From NCBI GenBank assembly GCA_036397795.1, contig DASWIF010000040.1, positions 1-59,038 of the forward strand: a stretch of 59,038 nucleotides of DNA, read 5' to 3'. Positions 2,203-40,715 of the stretch are shown one piece after another. The notes below the pieces were generated by a model. It ran no database searches. It saw only the letters and a list, made by a program, of their open reading frames with translations, and was not told the DNA's origin. Positions within the stretch are counted from its first letter, which is position 1. Each line of letters opens with the position of its first letter. Source of the stretch: Candidatus Saccharimonadales bacterium. GTDB lineage: Bacteria; Patescibacteriota; Saccharimonadia; Saccharimonadales; DASWIF01. The position numbers and the translations under genes are program-made.

Positions 2203-2225
2203 TTAAATGAGTTAGATTGTGGTCT

Positions 2226-4527: not shown

Positions 4528-4644
4528 TTTTCCACAAAGAGTTTTGTCGTGTCCACAACTTTCCAGATGGGCCAACGAACTGTGCACAACTATCAATCTG
4601 AAGGAGCGGCTTTTTGTGACAATCCCGGTTGCGGTTGTGGAAAA
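4528..4644. other. DnaA-box cluster in rpmH-dnaA spacer (oriC candidate, part 1)
   Basis: 9-mers versus TTATCCACA: TTTTCCACA 4528-4536 (8/9), GTGTCCACA 4549-4557 (7/9), TGTGCACAA 4581-4589 (reverse orientation, 7/9), TGTGGAAAA 4636-4644 (reverse orientation, 8/9). An AT-rich stretch lies at 4509-4530. Confidence 0.6.
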
Positions 4645-7422: not shown

Positions 7423-8484
7423 ATGATAATAACTGGGGTTGGGCTTAATAACTTCCGGTCCTATAAGGAGCAAGTATTCGAACTGGAAGCAGGGGTAAAC
7501 ATTGTGGTTGGCCCCAATGCTAGCGGCAAAACCAACCTCCTTGAGAGCATCTATCTCGGCTGCCAGGGCAAGTCATTTCGCGGGACGACCGACAAACTAA
7601 TCCAGCACAAAAAGCCGTGGTCCCGAGTTGAGCTGACAACCGATAAAGGCAGCCGGGTAATCAAGCTGCGACGAGACCAACCGCCCAAAAAAGAATTCGT
7701 GCTTGATGGTCTGACCAAGCGCCGTCTTACCCTAGACGACAAAATACCAGTCGTTTTGTTTACTCCCGACGATTTACGTCTGGTTAACGGATCGCCGGAG
7801 CGAAGGCGCCGGTTTTTAGACGATCTGGTGTCTAAATTAGAGCCAGAAGCGACCTCGGTACTATCGCAGTACCAACGAGCGTTGCTGCAGCGGAATAACC
7901 TGCTTAAGTACCCTAATCCTGACCCGGACGAACTGTTTGTTTGGGCCGTACGATTGAGCGAGTTAGGGGGCAAGATTGTCGAGTGGCGCCTGCAGCTTAT
8001 ACAAAAACTGAACCAAAAAGCCGGTAAGATATACTCGCTCATAGCTGGCGCTAAGCAGACAGTTAAATTCAGTTACGACAGTAATCTAAGTCCGCCTAAG
8101 TCCTACCAAACTAAACTTAGTTCGCACCTCCAAGGCCAGCGTGATATTCATCTGGGGTTTACTTCCTGTGGGCCTCACCGGGACGACTTAAGAATCGAAC
8201 TTGGTAACAGTCTTAGCAGCGACAGTTCCTCGCGGGGCGAAGTTAGGAGCTTGGTGCTAGTTAGCAAGCTGATTGAAATCCAGCTGCTGGAAAGCCGCAG
8301 CGGACAAAAGCCAATATTATTATTCGACGATGTTTTTAGCGAGCTCGACGGTGCCCGGCGTAGGCGGTTGTCGGAACAGGTCTTGGAACATCAAACAATA
8401 ATAACTACAACTGACGCTGATGCAGTTGTAGCACATTTTTTGAAAAGAGCTAATGTGATTCCGATAACTTACTATTCAAAGTGA
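7423..8484 (+). CDS. recF: DNA replication and repair protein RecF
   Basis: ORF track, 353 aa. NFRSY..., Walker A GPNASGKTNLLESI, and a signature/Walker B region LLFDDVFSELD. Confidence 0.93.
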   Translation: MIITGVGLNNFRSYKEQVFELEAGVNIVVGPNASGKTNLLESIYLGCQGKSFRGTTDKLIQHKKPWSRVELTTDKGSRVIKLRRDQPPKKEFVLDGLTKRRLTLDDKIPVVLFTPDDLRLVNGSPERRRRFLDDLVSKLEPEATSVLSQYQRALLQRNNLLKYPNPDPDELFVWAVRLSELGGKIVEWRLQLIQKLNQKAGKIYSLIAGAKQTVKFSYDSNLSPPKSYQTKLSSHLQGQRDIHLGFTSCGPHRDDLRIELGNSLSSDSSSRGEVRSLVLVSKLIEIQLLESRSGQKPILLFDDVFSELDGARRRRLSEQVLEHQTIITTTDADAVVAHFLKRANVIPITYYSK

Positions 8485-9143
8485 CGTATTAGGTTGCTAT
8501 CATCTTCAAACTCTTGTTCGCTGGGTAGATTGACGTCGATATTAAACTTAGTCGAGTCTATACCATTTTCTTCCAGCAGAGCTAACGCGGCGGCTTCAAC
8601 CTTTCCTTCGGGTTTTTTAGTAATGTTAACGAGTAGACTACTATCAGATATTTTGATAATACTAAAGCCGTTTCCGGAATATGGTAAATCTGACAGGAAA
8701 TCACTGGTAGCTGGTAATAGGTTGACGGTAAATTCTTTAGTCAATTCATTAATCAGCTCATCCGATCTGCTGGTCAGATTGCTAATCGTTATCGTATAAG
8801 TCTGCTCATCATTGAGCAGCAAGTTACTCAAGTTGATAGTCAATTTGTTTTCTAAAATACCGTAAATATATTTCACATTTTGGTCAACAACAACGCTGAA
8901 CACATCGCTTTGGACCAACGGCATTTCGCGATTAAACTCAAAAGTAAAAGTTGTAGCGAACTGATTAGTTGAAACTTCAGCTTGAGGGCTCACCGAAATG
9001 AGCTGGAAAGGCTCCTCGCGTGTACTGGAAGAGATTATGAGGATTATTAGCGGGATGACTACCACAATGATAGCAAGAGCAAAGGCCAAAGCGCGATTGC
9101 GCAAAATCAATTCTAGTAGTTGGTTATTGTTAGGTTCCATCAA
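8472..9143 (-). CDS. N-terminally membrane-anchored protein, last gene of the T4SS operon (VirB8/PrgL-like in size and topology only)
   Basis: ORF track, 223 aa. Single TM ALAFALAIIVVVIPLIILII followed by an extracytoplasmic domain of about 185 aa. Its start overlaps the upstream hydrolase gene by 14 nt. Confidence 0.6.
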   Translation of the reverse strand: MMEPNNNQLLELILRNRALAFALAIIVVVIPLIILIISSSTREEPFQLISVSPQAEVSTNQFATTFTFEFNREMPLVQSDVFSVVVDQNVKYIYGILENKLTINLSNLLLNDEQTYTITISNLTSRSDELINELTKEFTVNLLPATSDFLSDLPYSGNGFSIIKISDSSLLVNITKKPEGKVEAAALALLEENGIDSTKFNIDVNLPSEQEFEDDSNLIRHFE

Positions 9144-10398
9144 TTGACCAGTGCCAGATCTCGGTTCTTAGTTGATATAAGCCGTACCGGCCAGCGTTGG
9201 CCGTTAGCCATTCCCACGTTGCGTTGCCCGGTGCCTGACAAAAGCTTCGTCCGTCAATTATTATCTCATGCGGGCAAGAGACTGGGATACTGCTCATATC
9301 GACCGCAAAACCCATTTGGTGGTTAGAATAACCCGGTCGTGCGGTGGGTATTCGGCAAGAACTGGCCGGTGCATTATAAATATCCGGGCAGCCGTTTCTT
9401 ATGCGCGCATCTATCTGGCCCTGCATGGTCCTGAAACCCCCACCACGCAATGAAATTCCACTAGCCGACGCTGACTGGGCCATCTGATAATAAACTCCGG
9501 AAATTTGCGAATTCACCCAAGGGCCGGCACTGCCGTCGGGCAGTGCAATTTGGCATATCCTAATCCTGTATCTGGACCCATCATCATAACCATCAACGAG
9601 CTGCTCTCCAAGTATCTGCCCCTGGCATGGTACCTCTGTTGTATCTCCTTTAATTATTTCAAGATCGAGATCACCCCCACCGCAAGTTACACCGGTGCTG
9701 CCGCTAGTCCCTGCCAGATCCTCATACACATCTTCAGCTGGGCTTATGCGATAGCGGAAGGCTTGTTCGTAACTAATCTTACCCTCCGCGTAGTCAATTG
9801 AGAGTTGGTTAGCTTCATAGTAACGAGCAAACGCAACAGCCGCATCTTCCACGGTTTGCGTGGCTGTAAGCATCTCAAAAGCATTTGCTCGTGAACCACC
9901 TGTTACTCCTGGTGCAGGTGGCTGACCTGTCATCTCAAACATAATAAAATCCAGCTGTAAATCTAATGTCAGAGGGTCCTTATTCAGGGCCTCGGCATAA
10001 CGAAGCAGAGTTTGCCACCGTTCACTAAAGGTCCACTGGGCAATACCCCTACCCTTTTGGCCGGACGGATCGTTAGGATCTTCAACAAAATCGCCGCCTT
10101 GCCTGATACGCGGGTCTAAAGTACCAGCCGATTCAACGAGTAGGTTGCCAATAATACCTGCAGCTTGCTCTTGGGAGAAACCGTGAGTTATGAAATAATT
10201 CCAGACAACTTCTAGATTATTACCGCCAGCTACAATACCGTCGACGCCGCAAATCTCATCATCGGCGTCATAAAATACATGATTTCTTAATATCGCCTCT
10301 CTGTCATTGTCGTTGATCGCTATCACGTTGGTCGGTATAAAAAAACTAAACCAAATGATCATAATGATGGACAGGTATCGATATAAGCGGCCGATCAA
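9130..10398 (-). CDS. Bifunctional cell-wall hydrolase: lysozyme-like (phage tail lysozyme type) N-domain + peptidase M15 (VanY-like) C-domain
   Basis: ORF track, 422 aa, with signal/TM. AAGIIGNLLVESAGTLDP ... GRGIAQWT is lysozyme-like. YSNHQMGFAVDM (about 9297-9334) and EIWHWS are the M15 zinc-peptidase motifs. Confidence 0.75.
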   Translation of the reverse strand: MIGRLYRYLSIIMIIWFSFFIPTNVIAINDNDREAILRNHVFYDADDEICGVDGIVAGGNNLEVVWNYFITHGFSQEQAAGIIGNLLVESAGTLDPRIRQGGDFVEDPNDPSGQKGRGIAQWTFSERWQTLLRYAEALNKDPLTLDLQLDFIMFEMTGQPPAPGVTGGSRANAFEMLTATQTVEDAAVAFARYYEANQLSIDYAEGKISYEQAFRYRISPAEDVYEDLAGTSGSTGVTCGGGDLDLEIIKGDTTEVPCQGQILGEQLVDGYDDGSRYRIRICQIALPDGSAGPWVNSQISGVYYQMAQSASASGISLRGGGFRTMQGQIDARIRNGCPDIYNAPASSCRIPTARPGYSNHQMGFAVDMSSIPVSCPHEIIIDGRSFCQAPGNATWEWLTANAGRYGLYQLRTEIWHWSIDGT

Positions 10399-10400
10399 AG

Positions 10401-13028
10401 TTAAAGTCCCCCATCATCGGCATCGGTGAAGAGCGAGGCCATAGAATTCATTACCTGAGCGTCGAGCAAACAGAGGTTATAGATTGACTGCGCGTAGTCG
10501 TCGTACTCCTTTAATTCGGTTTCGGTCGTAAGCAGCTTTTCTAGCGCGCTGTGGGTGGCATTCCAAAAAGCGTCTTGATCCGTCAGCAGCTCCCAGCTTA
10601 ACGGAACAAGTTGACCTGCTTCGGCAACAGAGGCACCAGCGGCTCTTAATACCTGGTGGACGTTGGAACAATTTTGCGGAGTAACGTCGGCCGGATCCAT
10701 TTCCAAAACGCTTTCAGGAAAGGCATATTGGGTTGTACCGGCAAATTCGGTCGGCGTTTCGACCGACTGGGCATAAACCGGCCGCCAAACAGAGGCGGCG
10801 ACATTGCCGTAGGCGGAGGCTATTAGCTTAGCCGGGCTAAGCAGTGAAGCGATTCCACTTAGCGTGCTTTGATAAGAAGTTGGAGAAATGGCGATAAGCC
10901 TGGCGATTAGTGAGCGCGGGTTATCCAGGGCAAAAATCCGTCCCGTTAGATCGGAGGAGTCTTGACGTTCTTGATCAAACCGAGTGGCCAACTGCTCAAC
11001 GTATGCCCGATCTTCTTCGGTAGCGGCCCTTGCACCGGCAAAGCGGAGAGTGTTTTCCGCCGTGATGATCGAGCCAGCCGCCAGGATGTTTGTTAATTCG
11101 CCGCCCTGTTGAGTACCGTCAACTATCGGCGAACCGCCAAAGAACGCTAGTACGCGTTCCGTTATCCAGCCAACTGCCCACTCTATGCCAGCTTGGGCGC
11201 CAGGTATAAGACTTAAGACAAAGTTAATCACACCGCCGGCGATAGTATTAAAAAGGTCTATCACTGCTTCTACTAAGTCTCCAAAAATGGGAATACTTAT
11301 TATGAAGCCATACGTTGACGCAATAGGTTGTATTAATATGCCAACACTGTTGTTGTAGGTGGCCTCGATGGTTTTTGCATACTTTGTGGCATCGGCCTTT
11401 TGATCGTCGCAAAAGTACTGGTAGGTTGGCTTGTTCTTGATTTTTTCCTCGGCTTCTATTCTGGCTTGATCGAGCTCGCACCAATCGGCTTTTTTGGCTT
11501 GGTCAATCGGCCTTTTTTCTATCAGGACTTGATGAGCCTCACTGGCCTCAAAACCCTCCAAGGATTCATAGGCGGCCGTCAGTTCCTCGCCGCTGACGTC
11601 CTCACCGGATATAATTTGATCCGACATGATTTTAAACTGAGTATAAACAGCGGTGTATTGGGCGGCCCGAGCGACAGTTATCATCTTGCTAAAAGTACCT
11701 TTTAAGAAATTGTTATGTATTGACACCAAGACATCGAGCGTGTCAGCTAGATTGATTACACCGAGTAGTTTAGAAGCTATTTTGGCTACAAGAACTTTAC
11801 GCGGGCTGCTTGGTGTATCAGGACTAGTGCCAGCATTTTTGGCAGCATTATCGATTTCTTCCTGGATTTCTTTTTGTAAGGGGCGGTTGTCCGAGTCACC
11901 ACCTGGCACACAGTTGGTGGTCCGAGTATCGCTGCAGGCCTGATCGCCGAAGTCTTCACCCACAACTGATCCGTCAAGGTTGAGGTTGAGGCTGTCATTC
12001 TTAGGGTTAACGGGGTCGGACGAATTAGAGCACCTTGAGTTGCTGAATAAGCAGCCAATAAACAGACCGCTGCGCAAGCTAGTCTTGATACCTTCCCAGA
12101 GTTTTATCCGGAAATTGCGTCGATGAACTTCCAGTTTCTCCCGGGTTCCCTCAAAGAATCGCCAACGTCTGACACCGTTCATATTTTGGAGATTGCGCCT
12201 GACATTGTGGCGTTTAATAACCTGAAACCACCGGGTATTGTCGTTGACAGTTTCCTTAATTGCTCGACGGGCGGCTTTGTCGCTGTCAAACAATTCGTCT
12301 GTAAAACCCTCAATGTTATTGGCGGTAATCTCTCCCGCTCGGAACTCTCTTGCCGTGATTTCGCCAAAATCATCGCCGACGGTAATCCGGGCTAGTTGAG
12401 GCCGGCCGTCGGGCCCCGCCCGCGTTTCAAAAAAAGTGCCGTGATCATTGAACACTCTGGCCTCGAAGTCGCTAGTCCTAAGAGTCCGGTACCAATCAGT
12501 CAGGGGCCGGTCGGTATCAACGCTCCTTGCCCGGAACCATTCACTTGTACCTGGTTTATCAAACTCCATCAAACGAGCTCGCAAGTAAGCGATTTTATAT
12601 TTGTCCGACCGACGGTCAAAAATCGAGTTCATGTTCACGTTGGTTACGTCGTCAAGGTTCTCAAAAATAAAGCTAAATTTCAGCGGCAACAGCGAGGTAA
12701 TAATGAGTCCAAATCCCCCGACTACCAGTCCGACCACAGAGCTTATCAGGGCATAGCGCTTCCAACTCTTCCGAAGGCTCAAGCGCTTTTTGGCCTTTGG
12801 CTGGGGGGACTGGCTGTAGAAACCTTGTTCTAACCCGGCTAGGCCGGACGATGCAGTTTTGCCGCTGGTAGTCTGGTCTGCCGCGGCGTCTTCTTTATTT
12901 TGCAGATCCGGTTCCTTCGCCGTGTTGGCATAATTTTCCGGCGCGGTCTTGTCATTGAACTTCTGGTCGTAGTCGTCCTGGATGGGGTTGGGGTCGGTGT
13001 CGGGCGGCTGATCAGTCTTGGTTGCCAT
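10401..13028 (-). CDS. Large T4SS-associated membrane protein, function unknown
   Basis: ORF track, 875 aa. Disordered acidic N-terminus, TM YALISSVVGLVVGGFGLIITSLLPL, further hydrophobic helices around aa 590-650. I saw no P-loop. It sits in the operon between VirB4 and the hydrolase. Confidence 0.7.
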   Translation of the reverse strand: MATKTDQPPDTDPNPIQDDYDQKFNDKTAPENYANTAKEPDLQNKEDAAADQTTSGKTASSGLAGLEQGFYSQSPQPKAKKRLSLRKSWKRYALISSVVGLVVGGFGLIITSLLPLKFSFIFENLDDVTNVNMNSIFDRRSDKYKIAYLRARLMEFDKPGTSEWFRARSVDTDRPLTDWYRTLRTSDFEARVFNDHGTFFETRAGPDGRPQLARITVGDDFGEITAREFRAGEITANNIEGFTDELFDSDKAARRAIKETVNDNTRWFQVIKRHNVRRNLQNMNGVRRWRFFEGTREKLEVHRRNFRIKLWEGIKTSLRSGLFIGCLFSNSRCSNSSDPVNPKNDSLNLNLDGSVVGEDFGDQACSDTRTTNCVPGGDSDNRPLQKEIQEEIDNAAKNAGTSPDTPSSPRKVLVAKIASKLLGVINLADTLDVLVSIHNNFLKGTFSKMITVARAAQYTAVYTQFKIMSDQIISGEDVSGEELTAAYESLEGFEASEAHQVLIEKRPIDQAKKADWCELDQARIEAEEKIKNKPTYQYFCDDQKADATKYAKTIEATYNNSVGILIQPIASTYGFIISIPIFGDLVEAVIDLFNTIAGGVINFVLSLIPGAQAGIEWAVGWITERVLAFFGGSPIVDGTQQGGELTNILAAGSIITAENTLRFAGARAATEEDRAYVEQLATRFDQERQDSSDLTGRIFALDNPRSLIARLIAISPTSYQSTLSGIASLLSPAKLIASAYGNVAASVWRPVYAQSVETPTEFAGTTQYAFPESVLEMDPADVTPQNCSNVHQVLRAAGASVAEAGQLVPLSWELLTDQDAFWNATHSALEKLLTTETELKEYDDYAQSIYNLCLLDAQVMNSMASLFTDADDGGL

Positions 13029-13031
13029 TTA

Positions 13032-14966
13032 TTAAATCTCCATCACTTGCGGCTGGTCGGTTTGATTCGGCTGTGTTACTGCCGTTTCAGGCTCATTTAT
13101 TTGCGACAGTTGCTCAATAGCTTTTAATTGCTTCGGGTCGGTTGAGATAAGCGAGGTCTCGGTGGCGCTGGCGATAACCTGGATATGGACATGATTTTGA
13201 CCGGCAAACAGTAGCCCCTGTCCGACCGGAAACTGCGCCAGGCGCTTCTTTTCTTCGCTGGTCAGTTTGAAGGTATCGGCCAGAACGTCGACGGCTGAAG
13301 TCGATTGTTTGAGCAGGATTTGCATCGAGCTGTTGGCCACCACCGCCCGGCCCATCTTGGAGCTCATGAAGTCTTCGACGTCTTGGCTAATAGCGGTTAA
13401 CCCCAAATTATATTTTCTGGCCCGTTTGGCTAAGGAGAATAAGAAATTGGCCGAATCCTCATATTTCATCAGCTGCCAGGCCTCGTCAACCACCAGCATG
13501 CGTTTTTGGCGGTCGGTCTTGGTTTTGTTCCAAATGTAATTAAGCACGATATACATGGCTACCGGTCTGAGCTCGTCCTCCAGATCGCGGATATTAAACA
13601 CTACTAAGCTGTTGTTGATGTCAACGTTGCTTTGCTGCGAAAAGACACCGGCAAACGTACCGCTGGTGTATTTTCTCAGGCGTTGGGCTAGTTGCGGGCC
13701 GGTGCCGCCCATGTGCAGCAGGGTTTCATACAAGTCGTTGATCGTCGGCGGCGGAGTGCGGTGGGTCAACGGGTCATTGGTGATACCGGCTTTAGCGTAC
13801 GTTTCGATTAAGGCTTGGTCTAGATCGGCTTCCTCGACCGGACTGAGCGCCGGCATGGCCACGCCGCCGCTGGCGGCCGCGGCCGCTTGAGCTTGGGCGC
13901 CGCCCATCATCAATCTGAGCAAGCCGTGCAAACTGATCAAATTGGCGCGAAGCGCGTTGTCGGCGTCTTCCTTTTCAACTACTTGGGGCAGATCGAATGG
14001 GTTAATCCGGGTGGGTGAGCTAAGACTCAGCCGGACGTAAGAGCCGCCGACGGCGTCCGACATCCGTTGATACTCGTTTTCCGGATCGATAATAATAACC
14101 TCGGTGCCAAACATCATGGAGCGCAGAGCCTCCAGCTTGACCGCAAACGATTTACCGGCACCCGATTTGGCAAAAACCACCAAGTTGGCGTTTTCCAGCC
14201 GAAAACGGTCAAATATGACCAAGCCGGAATTGTGCATATTGACACCATAAAGAATACCGTCCTCGTCCGTTAAGTCGGCCGAGGTAAAAGGAAAGCTGGT
14301 AGACAGCGCGCCGGTCGACATATTGCGACGAATTTGCAATTGATCCAAGGCCTGAGGGATAGTGGAATTAAAACCTTGCTCCATTTGGACTGTGGCCGGT
14401 TTGGAATAAACCAACTGCTGGCCCAGGATGGTTTCAATCTTGTGTTCGACAAAATCAAGCTCCTCTAGGCTGCCGGCATAAATCGTAAAGTAAAAACCGA
14501 ACCTAAAGAAACGTTCCTCGCCAATTTGCAACTTGTCCCTTAGCTCTTCGGCATCCTGAATAGCGGCCTGCAGACCGACATCTCTAACCCGGCCCTTTTC
14601 GGCGTTAATCTGGATACCGGCTTCCAGCTGCCCGACCTTTTTCTTGAGGTTTTGGAGCACGACTTGGCTTTCCACCGGGTAGACAAACATGGAAATATCT
14701 ATTTCTTCATCGACATTGATAATCGGTGACAGCCAGCCGGTGTAAATTTGCCGGGGGTAACCATAGACGTAGAATGTTCGGGCGTAGCGCGTACCGATTC
14801 TAAAATGGCCGGATTCGAGCTCGATTGAACTCGGCGCGATGAAGTCTCTAAGAGCCGTAACGCCTTTTCTAAACTCTTGTTCGACCTCAGTTTGCTCTCG
14901 GGCACGCTGATATGCGGCCAAATCAATCGGATCATGTTGAGGTTGTTTATTACCAAAAAGGGCCAC
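13032..14966 (-). CDS. virB4: Type IV secretion ATPase VirB4/TrbE/PrgJ family
   Basis: ORF track, 644 aa, GTG start. Walker A VFAKSGAGKSFA (about 14145-14179), Walker B MLVVDEAWQLM, and a Gram-positive VirB4 N-domain pattern APSSIELESGHFRIGTRYARTFYVYGYPRQIYTGWL. Confidence 0.9.
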   Translation of the reverse strand: MALFGNKQPQHDPIDLAAYQRAREQTEVEQEFRKGVTALRDFIAPSSIELESGHFRIGTRYARTFYVYGYPRQIYTGWLSPIINVDEEIDISMFVYPVESQVVLQNLKKKVGQLEAGIQINAEKGRVRDVGLQAAIQDAEELRDKLQIGEERFFRFGFYFTIYAGSLEELDFVEHKIETILGQQLVYSKPATVQMEQGFNSTIPQALDQLQIRRNMSTGALSTSFPFTSADLTDEDGILYGVNMHNSGLVIFDRFRLENANLVVFAKSGAGKSFAVKLEALRSMMFGTEVIIIDPENEYQRMSDAVGGSYVRLSLSSPTRINPFDLPQVVEKEDADNALRANLISLHGLLRLMMGGAQAQAAAAASGGVAMPALSPVEEADLDQALIETYAKAGITNDPLTHRTPPPTINDLYETLLHMGGTGPQLAQRLRKYTSGTFAGVFSQQSNVDINNSLVVFNIRDLEDELRPVAMYIVLNYIWNKTKTDRQKRMLVVDEAWQLMKYEDSANFLFSLAKRARKYNLGLTAISQDVEDFMSSKMGRAVVANSSMQILLKQSTSAVDVLADTFKLTSEEKKRLAQFPVGQGLLFAGQNHVHIQVIASATETSLISTDPKQLKAIEQLSQINEPETAVTQPNQTDQPQVMEI

Positions 14967-14979
14967 TAGACAACCTCAA

Positions 14980-15445: not shown

Positions 15446-16288
15446 CTCTGGCTGTGCCGGCGACTCGCCTTTCTCAACGATGGGGGCTTCCAAATCACTT
15501 ACGTTTCTTAGATTTTGCCTAGTGGCTGTGTCGGGGTTATAAACATCATAATACAGCTCGATCAACTCCTGTGTGTCCAGCGGGATAGCCTGGACGCTCA
15601 TTTGGTTCAGCCCGCCGACAACGCTCTGGACACGATTTTTGAGTTCTTGTTTGGCCTTACCAAGCTCGCCCTCGTTAATCGTTATAACCTCATTGCCGGC
15701 CGACTTGTTAATTTTAAACAGTTCAAAGAATCCGCTAAATACCTTCTTGCCGGCCTCGACCGGCTTGCTGATATCGATAGTTGGAAAGTAAGGTACCACC
15801 ACATAAAATTGCTTATCCATAATATTGGTTTGTTGCACCAAAGCGTCAATATAAGCGACATAGTCTTCCATTAGCAGCCCGAGTAGCATATTTTCCTGCT
15901 CGGAGCGCAACTGGACTAATTTTTCCAAATAAGGACGCATATCAATCTTTTTTGATCGGATAAAAATTTGAATGGGAAAATACAGTGAGTTTAAAAATCC
16001 TTGGTAGCCATACTCGACCGCCTCTCGTTCTTGCGGGCTCATAAGATCAAAGTTGATTGATTGGGCCATTACCACCGAACGGTACGAACCGTCACGCATG
16101 ATGACAATCCCGTCCCTTATCTCGGCAATGTGGAGGGTATTTTGTGTGCTGTTGGGGTTGGTGCTCTTGGCCGCTACCATCCCGGCCGGCGGTGTGCCTT
16201 GAACCGGGGCCCCTGGGGTGGGTGGAACATTGGTTGGTTGGGGGCCCACCTGACCTTGATTGGGTTGAACTTGATTATCCGGCTGCAT
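15422..16288 (-). CDS. T4SS accessory protein resembling a VirB4 N-terminal domain without the ATPase
   Basis: ORF track 15422..16300 (TTG); ATG at 16288 is more likely. Pro/Gln-rich N-terminus, then IAEIRDGIVIMRDGSYRSVVMAQSINFDLMSPQEREAVEYGYQGFLNSLYFPIQIFIRSKKIDMRPYLEKL. By eye this parallels the VirB4 N-domain. No P-loop. Confidence 0.55.
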   Translation of the reverse strand: MQPDNQVQPNQGQVGPQPTNVPPTPGAPVQGTPPAGMVAAKSTNPNSTQNTLHIAEIRDGIVIMRDGSYRSVVMAQSINFDLMSPQEREAVEYGYQGFLNSLYFPIQIFIRSKKIDMRPYLEKLVQLRSEQENMLLGLLMEDYVAYIDALVQQTNIMDKQFYVVVPYFPTIDISKPVEAGKKVFSGFFELFKINKSAGNEVITINEGELGKAKQELKNRVQSVVGGLNQMSVQAIPLDTQELIELYYDVYNPDTATRQNLRNVSDLEAPIVEKGESPAQPEQYTGSSI

Positions 16289-16348
16289 CTCGCCCACCAA
16301 TTAAATAGGCCATAACCAACAACTGATAACCAACAACTGACAATTCCT

Positions 16349-16723
16349 TCATTTTGATTTCTCCAAAATGCTGCTCAGAATTTTGAGTAACTCATACCCC
16401 TCGACTAGCAGCTCTTGTCTACGTTCAAGCATAGCATTATCTGGGGTGTCAACCAACTTGAGCCAGTAAATGGATTCCTTAGTTTCTTTGCGGGAAATTC
16501 TAAGTCTCATTAGCCGATCTTTGGAACCAAGCGATTCTCTGTGCTCTATATAGTTAGCGCCAACTGAAGCCGAAGAGCGTATGAGTTGTTTTATATATTC
16601 GTGATTGGAAACAGATCGGGGTAGTTTACCGCAAAAATCACGACATAAGCGAGCAAAAAGCAACGTTCGATCCTCTAGATCGAATGGCTTAGTAGCCACT
16701 TTTGTTTGTTGACTCCGATGCAT
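16349..16723 (-). CDS. Four-helix-bundle protein (23S rRNA IVS protein / Avd-like family), second copy
   Basis: ORF track, 124 aa. IKQLIRSSASVGANYIEHRESLGSKDRLMRLRISRKETKESIYWLKL fits the family pattern. Confidence 0.75.
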   Translation of the reverse strand: MHRSQQTKVATKPFDLEDRTLLFARLCRDFCGKLPRSVSNHEYIKQLIRSSASVGANYIEHRESLGSKDRLMRLRISRKETKESIYWLKLVDTPDNAMLERRQELLVEGYELLKILSSILEKSK

Positions 16724-16800
16724 ACAACAAACATTATAACCTCTCTATACCTATTCGTATGCTTGCCAGTTGCAAGTTGATAATTGATAGTTTTTCTCTG

Positions 16801-17757
16801 CTAATGCAGAGAAATTTCATCTCCAGATTCGAGCGACTTCAGCCGCTGCGCTTCGGTGGCCAGGGTCTGAACACTGAGATCGCTGGCGTTGTTGACCAGA
16901 TTGGTAATGGCCGGATCAGGCGCCGACGCAGCCGCGCTGGAATCTTGGAACTGGTATTTGGGAATATGGTTAGCTTCGGTTTTTTTTGGTCTGGTTTTTT
17001 TATTCCCAGCCTTATTCCTAGATACCGATCCCTGGATACTATCGTCGTCTACTGGCTGGATGACGCGCTGCGTCATTTGAGGATAGGGGTTAAAACTCGG
17101 GTCGTTCATGTGTGCGACAGCATCGTCAATCACGTGTTTTTGCTGGTCCTTGATCATCTTGTCAAAATGAGCCGCAATTGGGCTGGCGGATTCGTCCATA
17201 ACGTCGTCTTGGGGGTGGATCTCGAGGGGGGCTAATTGGCCCGGCAGCTGGCTAAGCGAGATAAGTCGATCGCCTTCGATAACAGACTGGGTCGGTATTA
17301 CGATATTAGTTTGGAACCGCGGATCCTTGCTGGACCATCCACGCGAATCCATGGTAGTGGCTAGCTGCTTAAGCCGGCTTCTAACTTCGCCGGTACTAAG
17401 ATTGTCGGACTGATGCAGTTCGACTGATTTTGGAGCAGTAATCCGAACGTTTTCCATAACGCCTTCCTGATTCCAAATGCGCTTATGGGGCTTAAAGTAA
17501 AATCTAACCAACGAGGCCAAGTAGCTCTCAGCTGGCTGGGCCGAATTTTTAACGCCCAAGACAACTAATAGTCCAAAGAACAGGGCGGGTGTGATAGTTA
17601 ACGGCAAGAACACCAACGTGATAGAATTGCGCGCCAAAAGAAAACTGAGCCAACCGGATATAAAAACAATAATTATGTAAATGAACTGTCTGAGGGTAAA
17701 TGGGCCAAGCAGCTTGTCTTCAGCCTCGACGTCCTGGGGGATTTTATAGGTTGCCAT
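16801..17757 (-). CDS. PrgI-family (VirB3-like) T4SS membrane protein
   Basis: ORF track, 318 aa. Diagnostic N-terminus MATYKIPQDVEAEDKLLGPFTLRQFIYIIIVFISGWLSFLL followed by a second TM. Confidence 0.75.
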   Translation of the reverse strand: MATYKIPQDVEAEDKLLGPFTLRQFIYIIIVFISGWLSFLLARNSITLVFLPLTITPALFFGLLVVLGVKNSAQPAESYLASLVRFYFKPHKRIWNQEGVMENVRITAPKSVELHQSDNLSTGEVRSRLKQLATTMDSRGWSSKDPRFQTNIVIPTQSVIEGDRLISLSQLPGQLAPLEIHPQDDVMDESASPIAAHFDKMIKDQQKHVIDDAVAHMNDPSFNPYPQMTQRVIQPVDDDSIQGSVSRNKAGNKKTRPKKTEANHIPKYQFQDSSAAASAPDPAITNLVNNASDLSVQTLATEAQRLKSLESGDEISLH

Positions 17758-17810
17758 ATTAGCTTAAGTATTAAGGATAAAGATTGAAGTATCAAGTCTG
17801 GCCGGCAAGC

Positions 17811-20318
17811 TTACGGTGATGATGGCGGAGAACCTGGTGGGGGCGGCAAATCGCCCGGACCGGGCGGGGTATAACCGGGTGAGCCAGGTGTGAAAATCGT
17901 AGGACCGCCACCAGCGGGTGGCGGCGGAGGAGGTGGTGGAGCAGCGCCACCAGCGGGTGGCGGCGGAGGGCGTGTACCATCAAGATATCTTTTTGTCAGA
18001 TTGTCATAGTAGGTGTCAAAATCTCTAGATATGTTAATAGTCTCTCTTATATTTTCCTCAAAATCAGCTCTTTGTGCCGGGTCGGATATTGAAGCAGGAA
18101 CATTAACCGTATTAGTTGTCACGTCATAATACTCGCTGATGTATCTGTTAACTTGATTGTAGAACGCATCTGCTGTATCGATGGTCATTTTACTTCGTGC
18201 TTGCGGATTAGAGAGAGCTTCCACATATGTTGCCGCCATTTTTTGCATTCCAGACGCTGCTTTATTAGGAGCTTCTTGATAGATAGCCTTAGTGGTTATA
18301 TTTCGGACAGATTCAGGTTTATATTGGGTCAACTGCTCTGGTATAGCTGACATTGAGGCGAGCGTGCCCTTCAATACTTGTGGTCCGATAGTGGCAAGAA
18401 CCGGTGCGTTGAGTGTAACCATCCTATTCAGGTCGCTCTGTTCTGCGGAACTACCAGCTGATTTTATGTGGTCGGCATAGTCTTCAAACGCACCGATTTC
18501 CCTAAAAGTACTAACTAGCTGCTCTGAGGCAGAGATTCTAGCGAAGGCCCCGCTACTTGCGATTCTTCTAATTGCGGCCGTTGCTTGACTATCACCTTGT
18601 ACTTTTTTAATATCCCCAAGCTCACCTTGAGCACTCTTTATGCCCTCGCGATCACCTATAGATGATGCATAAGCTAATCTTGAATTAGCAGCTTGTTTCC
18701 AGCTTTCCGTACTTCCATAAGTAGAAGCTGTTAACACTTGCTTTTGCAAGTCAGAACTAACCGTCGGTAGCGCTTCCGCTACTGCTTGGTCAGCTAACTC
18801 CTTGCCTTCTTTAGCGGCACCAGACAGTTTGGCGCTTTCAAGTGCACGTCCATACTTGGTGGCTCCCCAAACATTTGTTCTTGATCTTAGATATCCTCTT
18901 TTCAACGTATTTTTTACGCCGCCCTCAGGGGTATTGGCCAGTTTACGAAGCCTTCCTCTGTTGCTGAATGCTTTTCTGGCTTCATCTGAAGCCTTGGCTC
19001 GCTCTTTCAATCCACCAGTCAGCCCTCCTCTCATTCGGTCGGCTACCCCGGCCAGCTGGCCGATAGCACCCCCCGCTAGACGGAAAGTATAAGGAATTAA
19101 GAAATACGGTGCAAAATAAGCCAAATAAACAACTATGTCAAAAGTACCTTCCGACACAGCACTATCGTCCGTGCTAACCTCGCTTAGAGTGCGAGCTAGA
19201 ACTTCACCACTTTTAAGAAGAAGTATTATTATCGGGTACATCAAAGCGGCCTTGGAAAACAATTGCCACCAAGCTTTGGCGAGCCCATCGGTTTCTCGAT
19301 GGACCCAGGCTATGGCTGCCAGCGGAGAGAGTACGATTAGCATAATCAATATGACTTTCCGTATGATTAATATAAAGAATACGACCATAAGGATTACACC
19401 GACGCCTACTAAAGAAGCAAGCATGGTAAACAATCCCGCTCCGGCTGCTAAAGGCACGCCCAGTACCAGAAAACCGCCGACAGTGGCATCTTCCCAGAAA
19501 GGCCTGGCGCCATCCCCGCTTTGGACTAAGACTGACGCTATTTCAAAATTCTCGCCCCTAAATACCCAATTGAATATACCCTCCACACCGGCACCTAGAA
19601 CGTTAACAAAGTCTAGAAAGTAAACGGATAAGAAGAATGAAAGCTGGACTAATATCGCGGCCAATCCCAGTCTTGGCAACAAGGATCTGATGGTAAAAGC
19701 ATTGTTACCGCTAGAAAACGCTACTAGGTAAATAGCGTAGAGAAAGGTCAATGCAAAAAATGAATTGGCAATCAGCCGAAAAGCTGTCCAGGTTCGATAA
19801 GCGGTGCTGTCATCATTGCCGGAATCAGCAAAACCGACTTCGTCTACCCGCAAGTTCGCATATTCATCACCTTGCTTGCCAAGTACAAAGTTGACTATGC
19901 TTTTGACGACATCACCCATCCACTCCAGAACACTGCAGATTATATAGCCTAGACCAGCGTTCTCGCTCCGGCAGGTTTGCTCGGCCTCAACCGGAGCATC
20001 GTCTTCAGGCGGATCTCCGGGGTTTGTTGTATCGTCGTGATCATAGGTGGCAACACAGTCGCTGAACTCTTGCCCGCTACTCTGATTTGTAAAAATTTCA
20101 CAGGCTTCTTCAACCGTAAGCCCACTGTTGTCCCGACGGCATCCTTCCTGATCCGCCGGAGAGCCTCTGGCTTCACAATATTCATCAATGTGGTGGTCGG
20201 CGTAGACTGGAGTCACGGTTGGGATAATCTGGAAAAACAAGACCCCAACGAACGACAACAAAAATAGTAGAACAATACTTTTGTTTCTAAGCTTCACAAT
20301 GCCAACATTGTAACCCAA
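17811..20318 (-). CDS. VirB6/TrbL/PrgH-like polytopic T4SS membrane protein with proline-rich C-terminal tail
   Basis: ORF track, 835 aa (TTG start is uncertain; GTG at 20297 is possible). N-terminal signal/TM, Cys-rich ectodomain, at least 6 TM helices at about aa 180-400. Tail is PPPPAGGAAPPPPPPPPAGG...PPPPGSPPSSP. Confidence 0.65.
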   Translation of the reverse strand: MGYNVGIVKLRNKSIVLLFLLSFVGVLFFQIIPTVTPVYADHHIDEYCEARGSPADQEGCRRDNSGLTVEEACEIFTNQSSGQEFSDCVATYDHDDTTNPGDPPEDDAPVEAEQTCRSENAGLGYIICSVLEWMGDVVKSIVNFVLGKQGDEYANLRVDEVGFADSGNDDSTAYRTWTAFRLIANSFFALTFLYAIYLVAFSSGNNAFTIRSLLPRLGLAAILVQLSFFLSVYFLDFVNVLGAGVEGIFNWVFRGENFEIASVLVQSGDGARPFWEDATVGGFLVLGVPLAAGAGLFTMLASLVGVGVILMVVFFILIIRKVILIMLIVLSPLAAIAWVHRETDGLAKAWWQLFSKAALMYPIIILLLKSGEVLARTLSEVSTDDSAVSEGTFDIVVYLAYFAPYFLIPYTFRLAGGAIGQLAGVADRMRGGLTGGLKERAKASDEARKAFSNRGRLRKLANTPEGGVKNTLKRGYLRSRTNVWGATKYGRALESAKLSGAAKEGKELADQAVAEALPTVSSDLQKQVLTASTYGSTESWKQAANSRLAYASSIGDREGIKSAQGELGDIKKVQGDSQATAAIRRIASSGAFARISASEQLVSTFREIGAFEDYADHIKSAGSSAEQSDLNRMVTLNAPVLATIGPQVLKGTLASMSAIPEQLTQYKPESVRNITTKAIYQEAPNKAASGMQKMAATYVEALSNPQARSKMTIDTADAFYNQVNRYISEYYDVTTNTVNVPASISDPAQRADFEENIRETINISRDFDTYYDNLTKRYLDGTRPPPPPAGGAAPPPPPPPPAGGGPTIFTPGSPGYTPPGPGDLPPPPGSPPSSP

Positions 20319-20352
20319 TGACGCTAAGAAGTTCTAGTTAAGCTTAAGGGGT

Positions 20353-21297
20353 TTAATCTGACAGAACCAGCCGCCAAACTTCGATTTGTTCCTGCGACCC
20401 GTCGTCTCTGATTGCATCTATCAGGGCTTTTCTTAGACGTATTTGCCCGGATTCAACCGTAGTTTCCCTTTCCAACAATTGCCATTCACCATCAATCTTT
20501 TCGCCGTCAAAACCATCTACCCGCAAACCGTCTATTAGGATTAGGTCACCTGATTGCATTGACCAGCCGGTATTATCACCACCCAATAACCGCCGGAAGT
20601 GAACGTAGCCCTTGTGGACTTCAAATTCACCGGTCGGGTTTCGGTAGCGTTCGGCGGCCAGCGAGAAGTCAACCATACCTTTTAATTTTGGGTCAATCCG
20701 TCCGTGCGGCTCGTCCACCAGCACATGCCAGAAGGCCAAATCGCCGGCAGAATGCGTATAAGCAAGAGACATACTCAATGAGACGCGTCTTAAGAATAAA
20801 TCAATATCGTCGCCGGGGTTGGGATAATCCTCTGTCTTAATCGCGACGTCATAGGGTGACACGATGGCCTGCTTTTCAATGATTTCCTCAAAGACCGGAT
20901 TCAAATCCTCAGGATAAATTAGAAGTGCCTCGTTTGAGAGCATCTGCGAGATAATCGCCGGGGTTAGTTCATAATCTAAGCCAACCTCCTGCCCGACGGT
21001 TGTCTCGGAAGCCACGGGAGGCGTAGTGGCTGATTCAACCGCAGGTGTTGTAATTGTGATTCCGGCAAGTATGTCTTCAGGCGCTTCTGGATTAGACAAA
21101 GGCCCAGCTGTTGTCGGCGGCGGTTCACTTTCCGGGCTATCTCCGCCCTGGCCTATAGCATATCCGACCCCAACTAAACTACTGGCCGCCAAAATAAGCC
21201 CGCCTAGCTTCACACCAAATCTATGCGGTCGGCCTGAGGGTCTATCGGGTGTGACCCTCGGCAACTGGTCCGTTGATCGTTGAATTGTTCTTGCCAT
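20353..21297 (-). CDS. Membrane-anchored extracytoplasmic protein, first gene of the T4SS operon
   Basis: ORF track, 314 aa. Basic N-terminus, TM LGGLILAASSLVGVGYAIG, and a Pro/Thr linker. Confidence 0.6.
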   Translation of the reverse strand: MARTIQRSTDQLPRVTPDRPSGRPHRFGVKLGGLILAASSLVGVGYAIGQGGDSPESEPPPTTAGPLSNPEAPEDILAGITITTPAVESATTPPVASETTVGQEVGLDYELTPAIISQMLSNEALLIYPEDLNPVFEEIIEKQAIVSPYDVAIKTEDYPNPGDDIDLFLRRVSLSMSLAYTHSAGDLAFWHVLVDEPHGRIDPKLKGMVDFSLAAERYRNPTGEFEVHKGYVHFRRLLGGDNTGWSMQSGDLILIDGLRVDGFDGEKIDGEWQLLERETTVESGQIRLRKALIDAIRDDGSQEQIEVWRLVLSD

Positions 21298-21368
21298 ACT
21301 TCGCTCGCTAAACTTATTGTAACAGAAATACCTGATTTATTCAATTGCTGACCGAAGCTTAGGTTGTT

Positions 21369-21377
21369 TGGTACAAT
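21369..21377 (+). promoter_or_regulatory. Extended -10 promoter element of the pilin operon (TGGTACAAT)
   Basis: Read directly. It ends 8 nt before ATG 21386, which implies a leaderless or near-leaderless mRNA. Confidence 0.4.
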
Positions 21378-21385
21378 CATCTCTG

Positions 21386-21829
21386 ATGTTACTCAGTTTG
21401 AAAAAGTATTCATACCTTTGGCCCCATTTGATTATTGGTGTGCTAATGTTCTCTATTGCTCTGTTGTTAACGACTGCCCAAGAAGTTTACGCCGACCATA
21501 CGATACAACACTGTGCTGATCAGACCGGTTCAGAGAATAACCAAGATTACATTGACTGCGTAAACAATATCGGCGGCGAAGTCGATACGTTAGAAAGTAA
21601 TCCTATATTTAAGCGTCTAGCGGATATTGTTAACTTCCTGGGGCTGGGTGTGGCTATTGCAGTTACCGGCTTATTAGTTGTAGGCGGAATTCAATACATT
21701 ACTTCGGCTGGCAATCCCCAACAGATTAGCTCGGCCAAATCCCGCATCAGAAACGCGTTAATCGCTCTAGTTTTATACATTTTTATGTACGCTATCCTGC
21801 AGTGGGCTGTGCCAGGAGGAATATTCTAG
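21386..21829 (+). CDS. T4SS pilin (TrbC/VirB2-like, CPR T4SS_pilin type), paralog 1
   Basis: ORF track 21368..21829 (TTG). ATG 21386 preferred because of the promoter above. Signal peptide ...LLLTTAQEVYA, then IVNFLGLGVAIAVTGLLVVGGIQYITSAGNPQQISSAKSRIRNALIALVLYI. Confidence 0.75.
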   Translation: MLLSLKKYSYLWPHLIIGVLMFSIALLLTTAQEVYADHTIQHCADQTGSENNQDYIDCVNNIGGEVDTLESNPIFKRLADIVNFLGLGVAIAVTGLLVVGGIQYITSAGNPQQISSAKSRIRNALIALVLYIFMYAILQWAVPGGIF

Positions 21830-21830
21830 T

Positions 21831-22187
21831 ATGGATTTATTGATTTTGTTCGCCGCGGCTTGCCGACCGGGAGCTGGTTTTTCTCTAGGTCTGCCGACCT
21901 GGTACCAGTATTTAGAATGCACCAACAGTGCGCCGCAAATCAATGAACTTAACGACATTCTGCTCATCGGGGCGGCCATAATCGAGATACTTATATTCGT
22001 GGCCGGGGTCTTGACGGTTTTTTGGATGATTTACGGCGGCATCGCCTTTATTACCAGTCAAGGGGCGCCCGATCGGGTAGCCCAGGCCCGGCAGACGCTG
22101 ATTTACGCCGCCGCCGGACTAGTGGTAGCGGTAGTGGCTAAGGGAATTGTCAGCTATATCTTCAGCCAGTTTGGGGTTCAGGGGTGA
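21831..22187 (+). CDS. T4SS pilin paralog 2
   Basis: ORF track, 118 aa. ILIFVAGVLTVFWMIYGGIAFITSQGAPDRVAQARQTLIYAAAGLVVAVV. The ATG lies 1 nt after the previous stop. Confidence 0.75.
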   Translation: MDLLILFAAACRPGAGFSLGLPTWYQYLECTNSAPQINELNDILLIGAAIIEILIFVAGVLTVFWMIYGGIAFITSQGAPDRVAQARQTLIYAAAGLVVAVVAKGIVSYIFSQFGVQG

Positions 22188-22708
22188 AGTGGTTGTTCGC
22201 CCAATTGGGCGGGGTGGATATTCCTAAAGTCGAGGCCAATGAGGCCAGCCTCCGAACAGCTATCAATTTTATGTTCCAGCTGGCCGCGGCATTAGCGCTG
22301 GTATACGTCATTATTAGCGCCATCAGATTTACGATCTCAGCGGGTGATCCGCAGCAGATAGCCAACGCCAGACGAACCCTAATTTATGCGCTGGTGGGCT
22401 TGGGTATCTCGGTTACAGCCTTGGCGATAACTTCCATTGTCCAAGGCGTGGCCAACCGGGCCGCTGGCGAGGCCAACCCGTTTTTTGGCGGGGATGGCGT
22501 GATAACCCAGTTGGTTGATCAATTAAGTTTCGCGGTCGGCGTGGCCTCCGTCATCATGGTTATTATTGGTGCATTCAGGTTTGTCACCTCCGGGGGCCAG
22601 TCACAATCGGCCCAGGGGGCTAGGGATACAATTATCTACGCGCTAATCGGTTTAGGTGTAGCTATTGCCGGGCGTCTTATTGTAACCTTTGTATTAGGAA
22701 GGATTTGA
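22184..22708 (+). CDS. Fused double T4SS pilin (two tandem pilin domains), paralog 3
   Basis: ORF track, 174 aa. Domain 1: ALALVYVIISAIRFTISAGDPQQIANARRTLIYALVGLGISV. Domain 2: VASVIMVIIGAFRFVTSGGQSQSAQGARDTIIYALIGLGVAI. 4-nt start/stop overlaps on both sides. Confidence 0.75.
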   Translation: MKWLFAQLGGVDIPKVEANEASLRTAINFMFQLAAALALVYVIISAIRFTISAGDPQQIANARRTLIYALVGLGISVTALAITSIVQGVANRAAGEANPFFGGDGVITQLVDQLSFAVGVASVIMVIIGAFRFVTSGGQSQSAQGARDTIIYALIGLGVAIAGRLIVTFVLGRI

Positions 22709-23154
22709 CAGTGCGACGCAGCCTGAACTACATCAAGATATTTCCAGTATTAATAATTCTACTGGGCTTGGTTATGGTCTTTACGATGCAGGTTCCTGCC
22801 TACGCCCAGCAATCCGATCCGTCAGACGTGGCCTGCCAAGGAATCGAAGCCACCGGGGCTGATTGTCAAGGCGGAGAACGAGACGTCAGAAACACCATCA
22901 GATCAGTGGTCAACATTCTGTTTTATATCGTTGGAATCGCCGCGGTAGTTACGTTCATTATCGGAGCCATCAGGCTTGTGTTGTCAGGCGGTGACCCGCA
23001 GGCGGTAGCCAGTGCCAGAAACACCATGGTTTACGCCGTCGTCGGGGTAGTCGTGGCGGTACTTGCCATAGTTATAGTTAGGTTTGTTTTTGACGAGGTT
23101 GGCGGTACGACCGGGTCGAACGGCGGTGGCGCCAAATTAAGTGGATTAACGTGA
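22705..23154 (+). CDS. T4SS pilin paralog 4
   Basis: ORF track, 149 aa. Signal peptide ...VPAYA, then VVNILFYIVGIAAVVTFIIGAIRLVLSGGDPQAVASARNTMVYAVVGVVVAV. Confidence 0.75.
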   Translation: MTVRRSLNYIKIFPVLIILLGLVMVFTMQVPAYAQQSDPSDVACQGIEATGADCQGGERDVRNTIRSVVNILFYIVGIAAVVTFIIGAIRLVLSGGDPQAVASARNTMVYAVVGVVVAVLAIVIVRFVFDEVGGTTGSNGGGAKLSGLT

Positions 23155-23210
23155 CAGGCTAAACTTAAGCGTGCTACAATTCCGTCAGGGTATGAAAAGG
23201 AGAATTAACG

Positions 23211-23579
23211 GTGAATCAAAAGTTTCTAAATAAGAAGACAGTAACAGCCGCCACGACGCTGGCTACCGCCGCCTCTTTTTTGGGCGGAACGCGGGTGTTT
23301 GCCCAGATAGATACTGGCATTGATGCGGCCGATCCAGGTCAGAACGAAGGTGAACTGGAAGATATCATTCAAAACGTGATTAATGTTTTGCTATTTGTCG
23401 TCGGTGTGGCTGCTGTTGTCATGCTGATCGTCGGCGGCATTCGCTACGTGGTCTCGGCCGGAGATCAGCAAGCCGTAGCTAACGCTAAAAACACGGTCCT
23501 TTACTCGATCGTTGGCGTGGTAGTAGCTTTTCTGGCGTTCGTCGCCGTTGAATTTGTGTTTAACCAGCTACAAGGCTGA
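23211..23579 (+). CDS. T4SS pilin paralog 5
   Basis: ORF track, 122 aa, GTG start with RBS AAAAGGAG. VINVLLFVVGVAAVVMLIVGGIRYVVSAGDQQAVANAKNTVLYSIVGVVVAF. Confidence 0.8.
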   Translation: MNQKFLNKKTVTAATTLATAASFLGGTRVFAQIDTGIDAADPGQNEGELEDIIQNVINVLLFVVGVAAVVMLIVGGIRYVVSAGDQQAVANAKNTVLYSIVGVVVAFLAFVAVEFVFNQLQG

Positions 23580-24936: not shown

Positions 24937-25024
24937 GGAAGGGTGACCGAGCGGTTGAAGGTACCGGTCTTGAAAACCGGCGTGGGGAAACTCACCGTGG
25001 GTTCGAATCCCACCCCTTCCGCCA
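24937..25024 (+). tRNA. tRNA-Ser (anticodon UGA), CCA encoded
   Basis: Hand-folded. Acceptor GGAAGGG/CCCTTCC, anticodon stem CCGGT/ACCGG, loop CTTGAAA, long variable arm, T-arm GTGGG-TTCGAAT-CCCAC. Confidence 0.9.

Positions 25025-39074: not shown

Positions 39075-40715
<1,641 letters not shown>

Follow-up and report, generated by a model that had tools for sequence, protein, structure and literature searches.

Beside recF, dnaN and dnaA on contig DASWIF010000040.1 lies a gene block encoding a type IV secretion system (T4SS) together with an array of pilins. The contig (59,038 nt, analysed whole and called the window below) belongs to assembly GCA_036397795.1, a metagenome-assembled genome (MAG) of a Candidatus Saccharimonadales bacterium. 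We consider it very likely that this locus is a conserved, vertically inherited chromosomal T4SS of the Saccharimonadia, orthologous to SEML1_0004-0019 of Candidatus Southlakia epibionticum ML1, and that it derives from a monoderm, MPF-FATA-like conjugation machinery without the DNA-processing half. Because its gene order is the same as that of ML1, whose T4SS genes are nearly all essential, the locus is the ortholog of a known, experimentally characterised system and is not new (Wang 2023; Quinonero-Coronel 2025; reviewed in FEMS Microbiol Rev 2025). Essentiality for epibiotic growth was demonstrated in ML1 only, by transposon sequencing (Tn-seq). Two small genes inserted into the operon, which carry a four-helix-bundle (4HB) domain and of which the downstream one is enclosed by an inverted repeat of ~45 bp, may be the only new item in the locus.

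Results

The T4SS locus is conserved in order and position

The locus comprises ten minus-strand genes (8472-21297), all in the same direction, which diverge from five plus-strand genes for VirB2-type pilins (21368-23579). This open reading frame (ORF) map reproduces the layout given in an earlier note on the same DNA, namely ten minus-strand genes and a five-gene pilin operon beside recF, and a hydropathy scan agrees with the labels "anchored" and "membrane" that were attached there to individual proteins. We compared the locus with 80 Saccharibacteria loci from a scan of species-representative genomes and with two closer relatives (L081 and L083), whose VirB4 proteins are 92% and 89% identical to that of the window. 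Comparative synteny, a check that the earlier note had proposed, placed the locus beside recF-dnaN-dnaA in nearly all 80 related genomes: tblastn searches and ORF maps recovered the order comF-hsp20-pilin array-virB6-prgI-trsD-virB4-large protein-hydrolase-small exported protein-recF-dnaN-dnaA, and the two closer relatives have the same gene order.

The match to ML1 is near gene for gene over SEML1_0001-0022, of which SEML1_0004-0019 form the T4SS part. The order in ML1 is dnaA, dnaN, recF, two small exported proteins, a lysozyme protein, a 1114-aa protein with a C-terminal M15-like domain, VirB4, a 294-aa protein, PrgI, a VirB6-like protein, a small NTF2-like protein, a second VirB6-like protein and six pilins, followed by hsp20, comFC and tRNA-Ser (PMC10633639); nearly all of its T4SS genes are essential by Tn-seq (Wang et al. 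2023, Cell, PMC10633639). Common to both loci are the order from recF to hsp20-comFC-tRNA-Ser, a location few kb from dnaA, VirB4, a TrsD-like protein of ~290 aa, PrgI, an extended VirB6-like protein, lysozyme and M15 hydrolases, a small exported Ig-like protein and a divergent pilin array. They differ in that ML1 has two VirB6-like genes and six pilins, whereas the window has one and five, and in that the large post-VirB4 protein bears the M15 domain in ML1, the lysozyme protein in the window. In addition, the small protein encoded upstream of virB6 is a sequence orphan in the window, and the two 4HB cassettes of the window, at the prgI/trsD and trsD/virB4 junctions, have no equivalent in ML1.

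The locus also has the hallmarks of the Patescibacteria T4SS clade (Quinonero-Coronel et al. 2025, Microb Genom, PMC12102498): a FATA-like VirB4, a TrsD homolog beside virB4, a PrgI-type VirB3, arrays of low-identity VirB2 pilins, no relaxase, an unlinked coupling protein and proximity to dnaA/dnaN. We found no substantive difference from that clade; PF05635/4HB neighbours are not mentioned in its description. With the conjugative T4SSs found in Gram-positive bacteria the locus shares a VirB4 of the CD1110 family, PrgI, TrsD, a VirB6-like protein, a multidomain wall hydrolase and the lack of an outer-membrane core. Unlike those systems, it is chromosomal and vertically inherited, has neither relaxase nor coupling protein on the contig, and includes VirB2 pilins, which the Gram-positive systems lack.

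A VirB4 ATPase apparently divided between two genes

The virB4 gene (13032-14966, minus strand, GTG start) encodes a 644-aa ATPase that was recognised by Pfam (P-loop_TraG, 1.2e-27, plus AAA_10 and DUF87), by NCBIfam (NF045971 conju_CD1110, 363.9 bits with the cutoff at 325, covering 180-732 of the 752 model positions) and in the PDB (4AG5, a solved VirB4 ATPase domain, 4.7e-47; TrwK, 2.6e-6). Both Walker motifs are intact (A, AKSGAGKS; B, MLVVDE at residue 490), and the extreme N-terminal domain is absent. VirB4 shares 100% identity with a protein from a Candidatus Saccharimonadales MAG, and its relatives number in the thousands.

A stand-alone homolog of the missing domain is encoded by the TrsD-like gene (15422-16300, minus strand; annotated start probably ATG 16288). 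Residues 53-167 of this 292-aa protein match positions 2-117 of the CD1110 VirB4 model (E 8.9e-7), and there is a weak match to the TrsD family NF041427 (5.6e-5). When an AlphaFold2 (AF2) model built from 46 homologs (mean predicted local distance difference test score, pLDDT, of 71) was compared with the PDB by Foldseek, the top 14 matches were all R388 TrwK/VirB4 (probability 0.93-1.0); orthologs of the protein bear PF26593 TraC-like. The model positions and fold matches bear out its earlier description as "VirB4-N-like". The link to VirB4 is thus drawn from the NCBIfam alignment and the fold search, not from profile-profile comparison; BLASTP between the two proteins gave E 0.028 only, and a PDB sequence search with the 292-aa protein gave no match. 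Judged from these alignments, the TrsD-like protein and the 644-aa VirB4 would together make up one canonical VirB4, split over two genes.

Membrane components, pilins and wall hydrolases

The 318-aa PrgI/VirB3-like protein (16801-17757, minus strand) matches PF12666 PrgI over residues 5-94 (2.5e-14; 54 bits, cutoff 27). It has an N-terminal hairpin of two transmembrane segments (TMs, at 15-55) and a long C-terminal extension, and is the counterpart of SEML1_0010. Upstream of it lies the gene for an extended, polytopic VirB6-like membrane protein of 835 aa (17811-20318, minus strand), with a signal sequence, at least four TM stretches at 182-375 and a Pro-rich C-terminal tail. Its orthologs in L081 and L083 bear precomputed PF19590 TrbL_3 matches, which were not reproduced on a re-scan with our local Pfam copy, and its ML1 counterparts (SEML1_0011/0013) were called VirB6-like from structure. 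We call it VirB6-like on the basis of weak TrbL matches, its topology, the precomputed TrbL_3 matches of the orthologs and the published structural annotation.

The first of the minus-strand genes (20353-21297) encodes an anchored protein of 314 aa with one TM (27-45) and no Pfam or NCBIfam family. Among 5.8e9 clustered proteins it matched itself alone, among 1.84e9 representatives there were two weak matches, and it shows no similarity to its positional analogue in L083. In the relatives and in ML1 this slot is taken by a small exported protein (SEML1_0012, NTF2/VirB8-like fold); a single-sequence AF2 model of the C-terminal domain of the 314-aa protein reached a pLDDT of 31 only, too poor for a fold search. 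The near-uniqueness of the protein suggests that this accessory slot of the T4SS may evolve very fast. One of the two weak matches, P0242, is also 314 aa long and has the same layout and a short conserved motif in common with it.

The five divergent pilin genes (21368/21386-21829, 21831-22187, 22184-22708, 22705-23154 and 23211-23579, plus strand) all encode proteins that score above the gathering threshold of PF18895 T4SS_pilin (5/5), as expected of the five-gene pilin operon described earlier; TrbC/VirB2 was matched weakly by the fourth. Each pilin has a signal sequence and two TMs, except the third with four, and pairwise identities range from 19 to 43%. The third gene (22184-22708) encodes a tandem double pilin, with two T4SS_pilin domain matches and four hydrophobic helices. 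Genes of 178-183 aa resembling this double pilin are also present in L081 and L083.

Downstream of virB4 the operon ends in three genes for exported or membrane-bound proteins. The cell-wall hydrolase (9130-10398, minus strand, 422 aa) combines a phage-tail-type lysozyme domain (Phage_lysozyme2, 9e-29, residues 61-226) with an M15 peptidase domain (VanY, 4.5e-8, residues 296-408), in agreement with the earlier assignment; it is signal-anchored (TM at 8-29), is the counterpart of SEML1_0006 and probably has a VirB1-like role. Between it and virB4, an 875-aa membrane protein (10401-13028, minus strand; TMs at 91-122, 564-582 and 589-608) is encoded. It has no Pfam, NCBIfam or PDB sequence match; by phmmer it matches, in 23 loci, the ORF that comes immediately after virB4, and it is the ortholog of SEML1_0007. 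In four relatives (L020, L021, L039 and L072) this post-virB4 ORF ends in an M15 domain similar to that of the window's hydrolase, and the L081 ortholog, of 1043 aa, has VanY at 920-1029. The M15 domain is therefore C-terminal on the large post-VirB4 protein in several relatives as well as in ML1, and on the lysozyme protein in the window, a distribution suggesting that wall-hydrolase modules have been shuffled between adjoining genes. The last gene (8472-9143, minus strand) encodes an N-terminally anchored exported protein of 223 aa (one TM at 9-44) with an Ig-like domain: Big_5 scored 22.5 bits, just under the Pfam cutoff of 23.6, and was also matched weakly by the L081 ortholog. Its positional counterpart, SEML1_0005, is an Ig/PEGA-like exported protein of the essential class in the ML1 Tn-seq data (Wang 2023, PMC10633639).

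Pfam models, the search that the earlier note had suggested, thus support VirB4, PrgI, the hydrolase and all five pilins, and with the VirB4-N-like protein these component calls stand; for VirB6 the match is weak, as detailed below.

Absence of mobility genes, and what the system may do

Outside the locus we scanned the non-nested ORFs of at least 90 aa, the ORF truncated at the left contig end, and dnaA, dnaN, recF, hsp20 and comFC. Among these ORFs of the 59-kb contig we detected no relaxase (MOB), no coupling protein (VirD4/TcpA) and no integrase, and VirB4 was the sole T4SS-type P-loop ATPase; flanking direct repeats were not searched for. The earlier observation that neither a relaxase nor a VirD4/TraG-type second ATPase is present was thereby confirmed, and no coupling protein and relaxase, which would have marked the locus as an ordinary integrative conjugative element (ICE), were found beside it among the scanned ORFs of the contig. 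The assignable genes outside the locus are all housekeeping or ordinary: yidC, rnpA, jag, DHFR, a LysR regulator, an ABC/FtsX pair, sortase, PGI, GroEL, a Mur ligase, TsaD, LeuRS and a secreted GDSL hydrolase.

Under the reading that we favour, VirB4/TrsD would dock on PrgI and VirB6 at the membrane, the hydrolases would open the cell wall locally, and the ATPase would drive assembly of a VirB2-type pilus or conduit contacting the host bacterium. Substrates would then pass through this conduit without a coupling protein. The cargo would most likely consist of proteins that are passed to the host, or of macromolecules that the epibiont takes up from it, protein export being judged the likeliest. 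Several points weigh against reading the locus in this way. The absence of a coupling protein was established for this contig only, and many Patescibacteria genomes, that of ML1 included, have VirD4-like genes elsewhere; in ML1 the gene is non-essential (PMC12102498). The TrbL match of the VirB6-like protein (residues 214-387, E 0.061) is below the Pfam threshold; a VirB8-like component was not demonstrated within the locus, its candidate being the 314-aa orphan with its poor AF2 model (pLDDT 31); and an hhalign comparison of the TrsD-like protein with VirB4 was not significant (probability 0.1), with low-diversity alignments drawn from the loci (Neff, the effective number of sequences, of ~2). 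Finally, a 2024 perspective describes the role of the T4SS as "completely unknown".

The alternative origin, that the locus is an ordinary ICE or the remnant of one, with relaxase, coupling protein and integrase just outside the window, draws on the best match of VirB4 to a conjugation-type family (conju_CD1110), on the shortness of the contig (59 kb, with distal genes unseen) and on the tRNA-Ser genes 1.4 kb downstream of the locus. Against it stands the fact that the block and both of its flanks (recF-dnaN-dnaA and hsp20-comFC-tRNA-Ser) recur in ML1 and in some 80 species-level genomes, as well as the lack of integrase, relaxase and coupling protein in 59 kb and of any compositional break, GC content showing no discontinuity across the locus. 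Relaxases are also scarce in the group at large, with only 109 in the whole Patescibacteria dataset, 15 of these near virB4 (PMC12102498). We therefore rejected the ICE reading, on the conserved synteny and the mobility genes not found; it was already largely refuted, and we regard it as highly improbable. The same synteny, the match to ML1 and the lack of mobility genes uphold vertical inheritance and the earlier proposal of a chromosomal, non-conjugative T4SS of Gram-positive type, with a pilus, in an epibiotic bacterium whose genome is reduced.

Two further alternatives concern function. The system could import host DNA or nucleotides, in the manner of ComB or Ced, for a bacterium unable to make them; this has been raised in the literature as a nucleotide-acquisition route (2024 perspective), comFC adjoins the locus, and NCBIfam gave weak matches to CedB and CedD, which import DNA in archaea. 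The CedB/CedD scores are far under their cutoffs, though, and comFC (SEML1_0021) is non-essential in ML1. Moreover, deletion of comEC in ML1 ends competence and leaves viability intact, yet the T4SS is essential (FEMS Microbiol Rev 2025); the essential role is therefore not ComEC-dependent transformation, and DNA uptake as the main function appears unlikely to us. We would give similarly modest weight to the idea that the locus is mainly a device for adhesion and pilus assembly that translocates no substrate, with VirB4 merely powering an array of pilins by which the epibiont holds on to its host. Five diverse pilins in a dedicated operon, the lack of a coupling protein on the contig and the essentiality of pilin arrays in ML1 would all suit such a device, but type IV pili already provide Saccharibacteria with adhesion and motility according to the literature, and the retained VirB6/VirB3 channel components and hydrolases would suit a conduit no less than a pilus.

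Two 4HB cassettes in the operon, one enclosed by inverted repeats

Two of the ten minus-strand genes encode PF05635 4HB proteins, which the earlier note had counted as parts of the T4SS. This was not borne out, the genes being sporadic PF05635 cassettes that are absent from most orthologous loci. Cassette A (16314-16792, minus strand; ORF 16349-16723, 124 aa) lies between prgI and trsD, and cassette B (14975-15450, minus strand; ORF 15019-15498, likely start 15417) between trsD and virB4. The protein of cassette B matches 23S_rRNA_IVP (5e-35), TIGR02436 (4.6e-34) and PDB 2GSC (1.6e-19), and that of cassette A matches 23S_rRNA_IVP (6.4e-9), TIGR02436 (2.5e-14) and PDB 2RLD (4.7e-8); 2GSC and 2RLD are solved S23p-type pentamers.

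In cassette B the ORF is enclosed by inverted-repeat arms of ~45 bp (about 15402-15450 and 14975-15020). From the 5' arm trsD takes its final codons and its stop, and the 3' arm ends just before the Shine-Dalgarno sequence of virB4. The arms form a terminal stem in both the minimum free energy (MFE) and the centroid fold (z = -4.1; flank duplex, z = -7.8), and the inverted-repeat score of 20 exceeds the maximum of 13 in 495 control ORFs. Cassette A has a weaker stem rich in G.U pairs, which is terminal in the MFE fold (z = -2.1) and more stable in the sense than in the antisense strand (-39.3 vs -26.3 kcal/mol); its DNA-level inverted-repeat score, 7.5, is not above the control ORFs. This DNA-level score proved a better discriminator than the total duplex energy of long flanks, by which just 2/11 cassettes were outliers.

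Comparison with the relatives marks cassette B as an insertion: in 78/83 loci (82 relatives plus the window) the trsD/virB4 junction holds none, and the gap between the two genes has a median of -4 nt in the 82 relatives vs a 455-nt spacer in the window. In addition, virB4 starts with GTG in the window and with ATG in the aligned relatives. An operon that is essential in ML1 thus appears to tolerate the loss of trsD/virB4 translational coupling. The site of cassette A is filled in L081 and empty in L083 and most loci. Across 84 loci and the window we counted 12 unique PF05635 genes at four junctions (prgI/trsD, trsD/virB4, recF/dnaN and beside hsp20), all of which share the direction of the surrounding genes; such cassettes are also recorded for L020, L050, L014, L039, L048, L055, L081 and L083. 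The genes fall into two subfamilies, each found at more than one site, and the filled sites are not the same among the closest relatives. The trsD/virB4 spacer of L083 (9856-10000) is a 145-nt sequence without an ORF, whose A/T-rich complementary ends could pair in a terminal stem of ~20 bp. This spacer could be what is left of a 4HB cassette that has lost its ORF, although its folding is not significant (z = -0.4).

Relatives of the cassette B type were found in 80 metagenomic loci (L085-L164). The inverted-repeat score was above the 95th percentile of the controls in 63/76 of the metagenomic cassettes (p = 2.6e-23, Mann-Whitney), both neighbours were co-oriented in 49/57, and the gaps to the neighbouring ORFs were about 30 nt. 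The neighbours are housekeeping genes, such as those for PilB/PilC, IF-2/thioredoxin, TsaE/PolA, Obg and DnaG.

These cassettes resemble the S23p-encoding intervening sequences (IVS) of Coxiella burnetii and Leptospira (PMC4990558) in length (about 430-480 nt), in having a PF05635 ORF in the loop of a terminal inverted-repeat stem and in their sporadic occurrence; the Coxiella IVS is 428 nt long, with a 28-bp terminal stem, and is cleaved by RNase III (Warrier et al. 2016, PMC4990558). The IVS, in contrast, reside in helix 25 or 45 of 23S rRNA, whereas the cassettes of the window lie between protein genes. We detected no rRNA in the window or in 40 related cassette loci. In the searchable literature we found no description of PF05635 ORFs in operon spacers; they are reported there only inside rRNA insertions from candidate phyla radiation (CPR) bacteria.

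Tentatively, and as one of several possibilities, we propose that the 4HB genes belong to widespread and possibly selfish Patescibacteria cassettes of ~0.45-0.5 kb, wedged co-oriented into the short spacers of essential or housekeeping operons, which would be the protein-operon counterpart of the IVS, would be transcribed by read-through and would perhaps be excised from the polycistronic mRNA or serve to segment it, their arms differing in sequence between copies and retaining complementarity. That the two proteins are instead true accessory subunits or regulators of the T4SS is suggested by their place inside the operon, co-oriented and tightly packed. This we consider most improbable, since the genes are absent from most orthologous loci, the T4SS of ML1 does without any, related genes in relatives occur at recF/dnaN or beside hsp20, and members of their subfamily have unrelated housekeeping genes as neighbours on both sides. 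The inverted repeats of the proposed cassettes could act either as RNA stems or as DNA features, such as the ends of a mobile element or an invertible segment. Selection at the RNA level was not demonstrated: mismatches in the arms showed no preference for sense G.U over A.C (99 vs 112). For eight cassettes with their flanks RNAalifold predicted no structure, as MAFFT could not align the divergent arms.

Flanking genes and other features of the window

On the replication side the locus is bordered by recF (7423-8484, plus strand; SMC_N/AAA_23), dnaN (6317-7405, plus strand; three DNA_pol3_beta domains) and dnaA (4703-6055, plus strand; Bac_DnaA, 1.5e-68), all identified with Pfam; dnaA is flanked by DnaA-box matches at 4528, 4636 (1 mismatch) and 6111 (exact). 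The boundary at the pilin side is formed by hsp20 (23648-24115, minus strand; Pfam HSP20), a comFC-like gene (24223-24897, plus strand; Pfam Pribosyltran and DZR_2) and a predicted tRNA-Ser (24937-25024, plus strand), and is conserved, in the same order, in SEML1_0020-0022 and related loci. A scan for promoter and terminator consensus sequences returned too many matches for defining operon structure.

Farther out, a gene for a secreted GDSL-type lipase/acylhydrolase of >690 aa is cut by the left contig end (3-2075, minus strand), next to one for a small ArsR/MarR-type winged-helix regulator (2217-2498, plus strand). Between 37061 and 45453 there are ORFs of 192, 379, 132, 230, 284 and 427 aa without a Pfam match, with groEL (39075-40715) among them, and the ORF at 45580-48993 encodes a protein of 1137 aa in which a metallophosphoesterase domain was weakly matched. 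GC content is 0.45 at 43-45 kb and rises to 0.57 at 46-49 kb.

Discussion

Few machines are known to be indispensable to the epibiotic life of ultrasmall Patescibacteria, and the T4SS of Saccharibacteria is among them. The window offers another well-resolved example of it and no new concept; what it contributes is comparative detail, in the form of an apparently split VirB4, a relocated hydrolase domain, an orphan in the VirB8-like slot and an operon that seems to tolerate two cassettes. Should the 4HB cassettes prove to be mobile or RNA-processed elements aimed at operon junctions, the intervening sequence would become a concept for mRNA as well as for rRNA, and the cassettes would have a bearing on how CPR operons are annotated and expressed.

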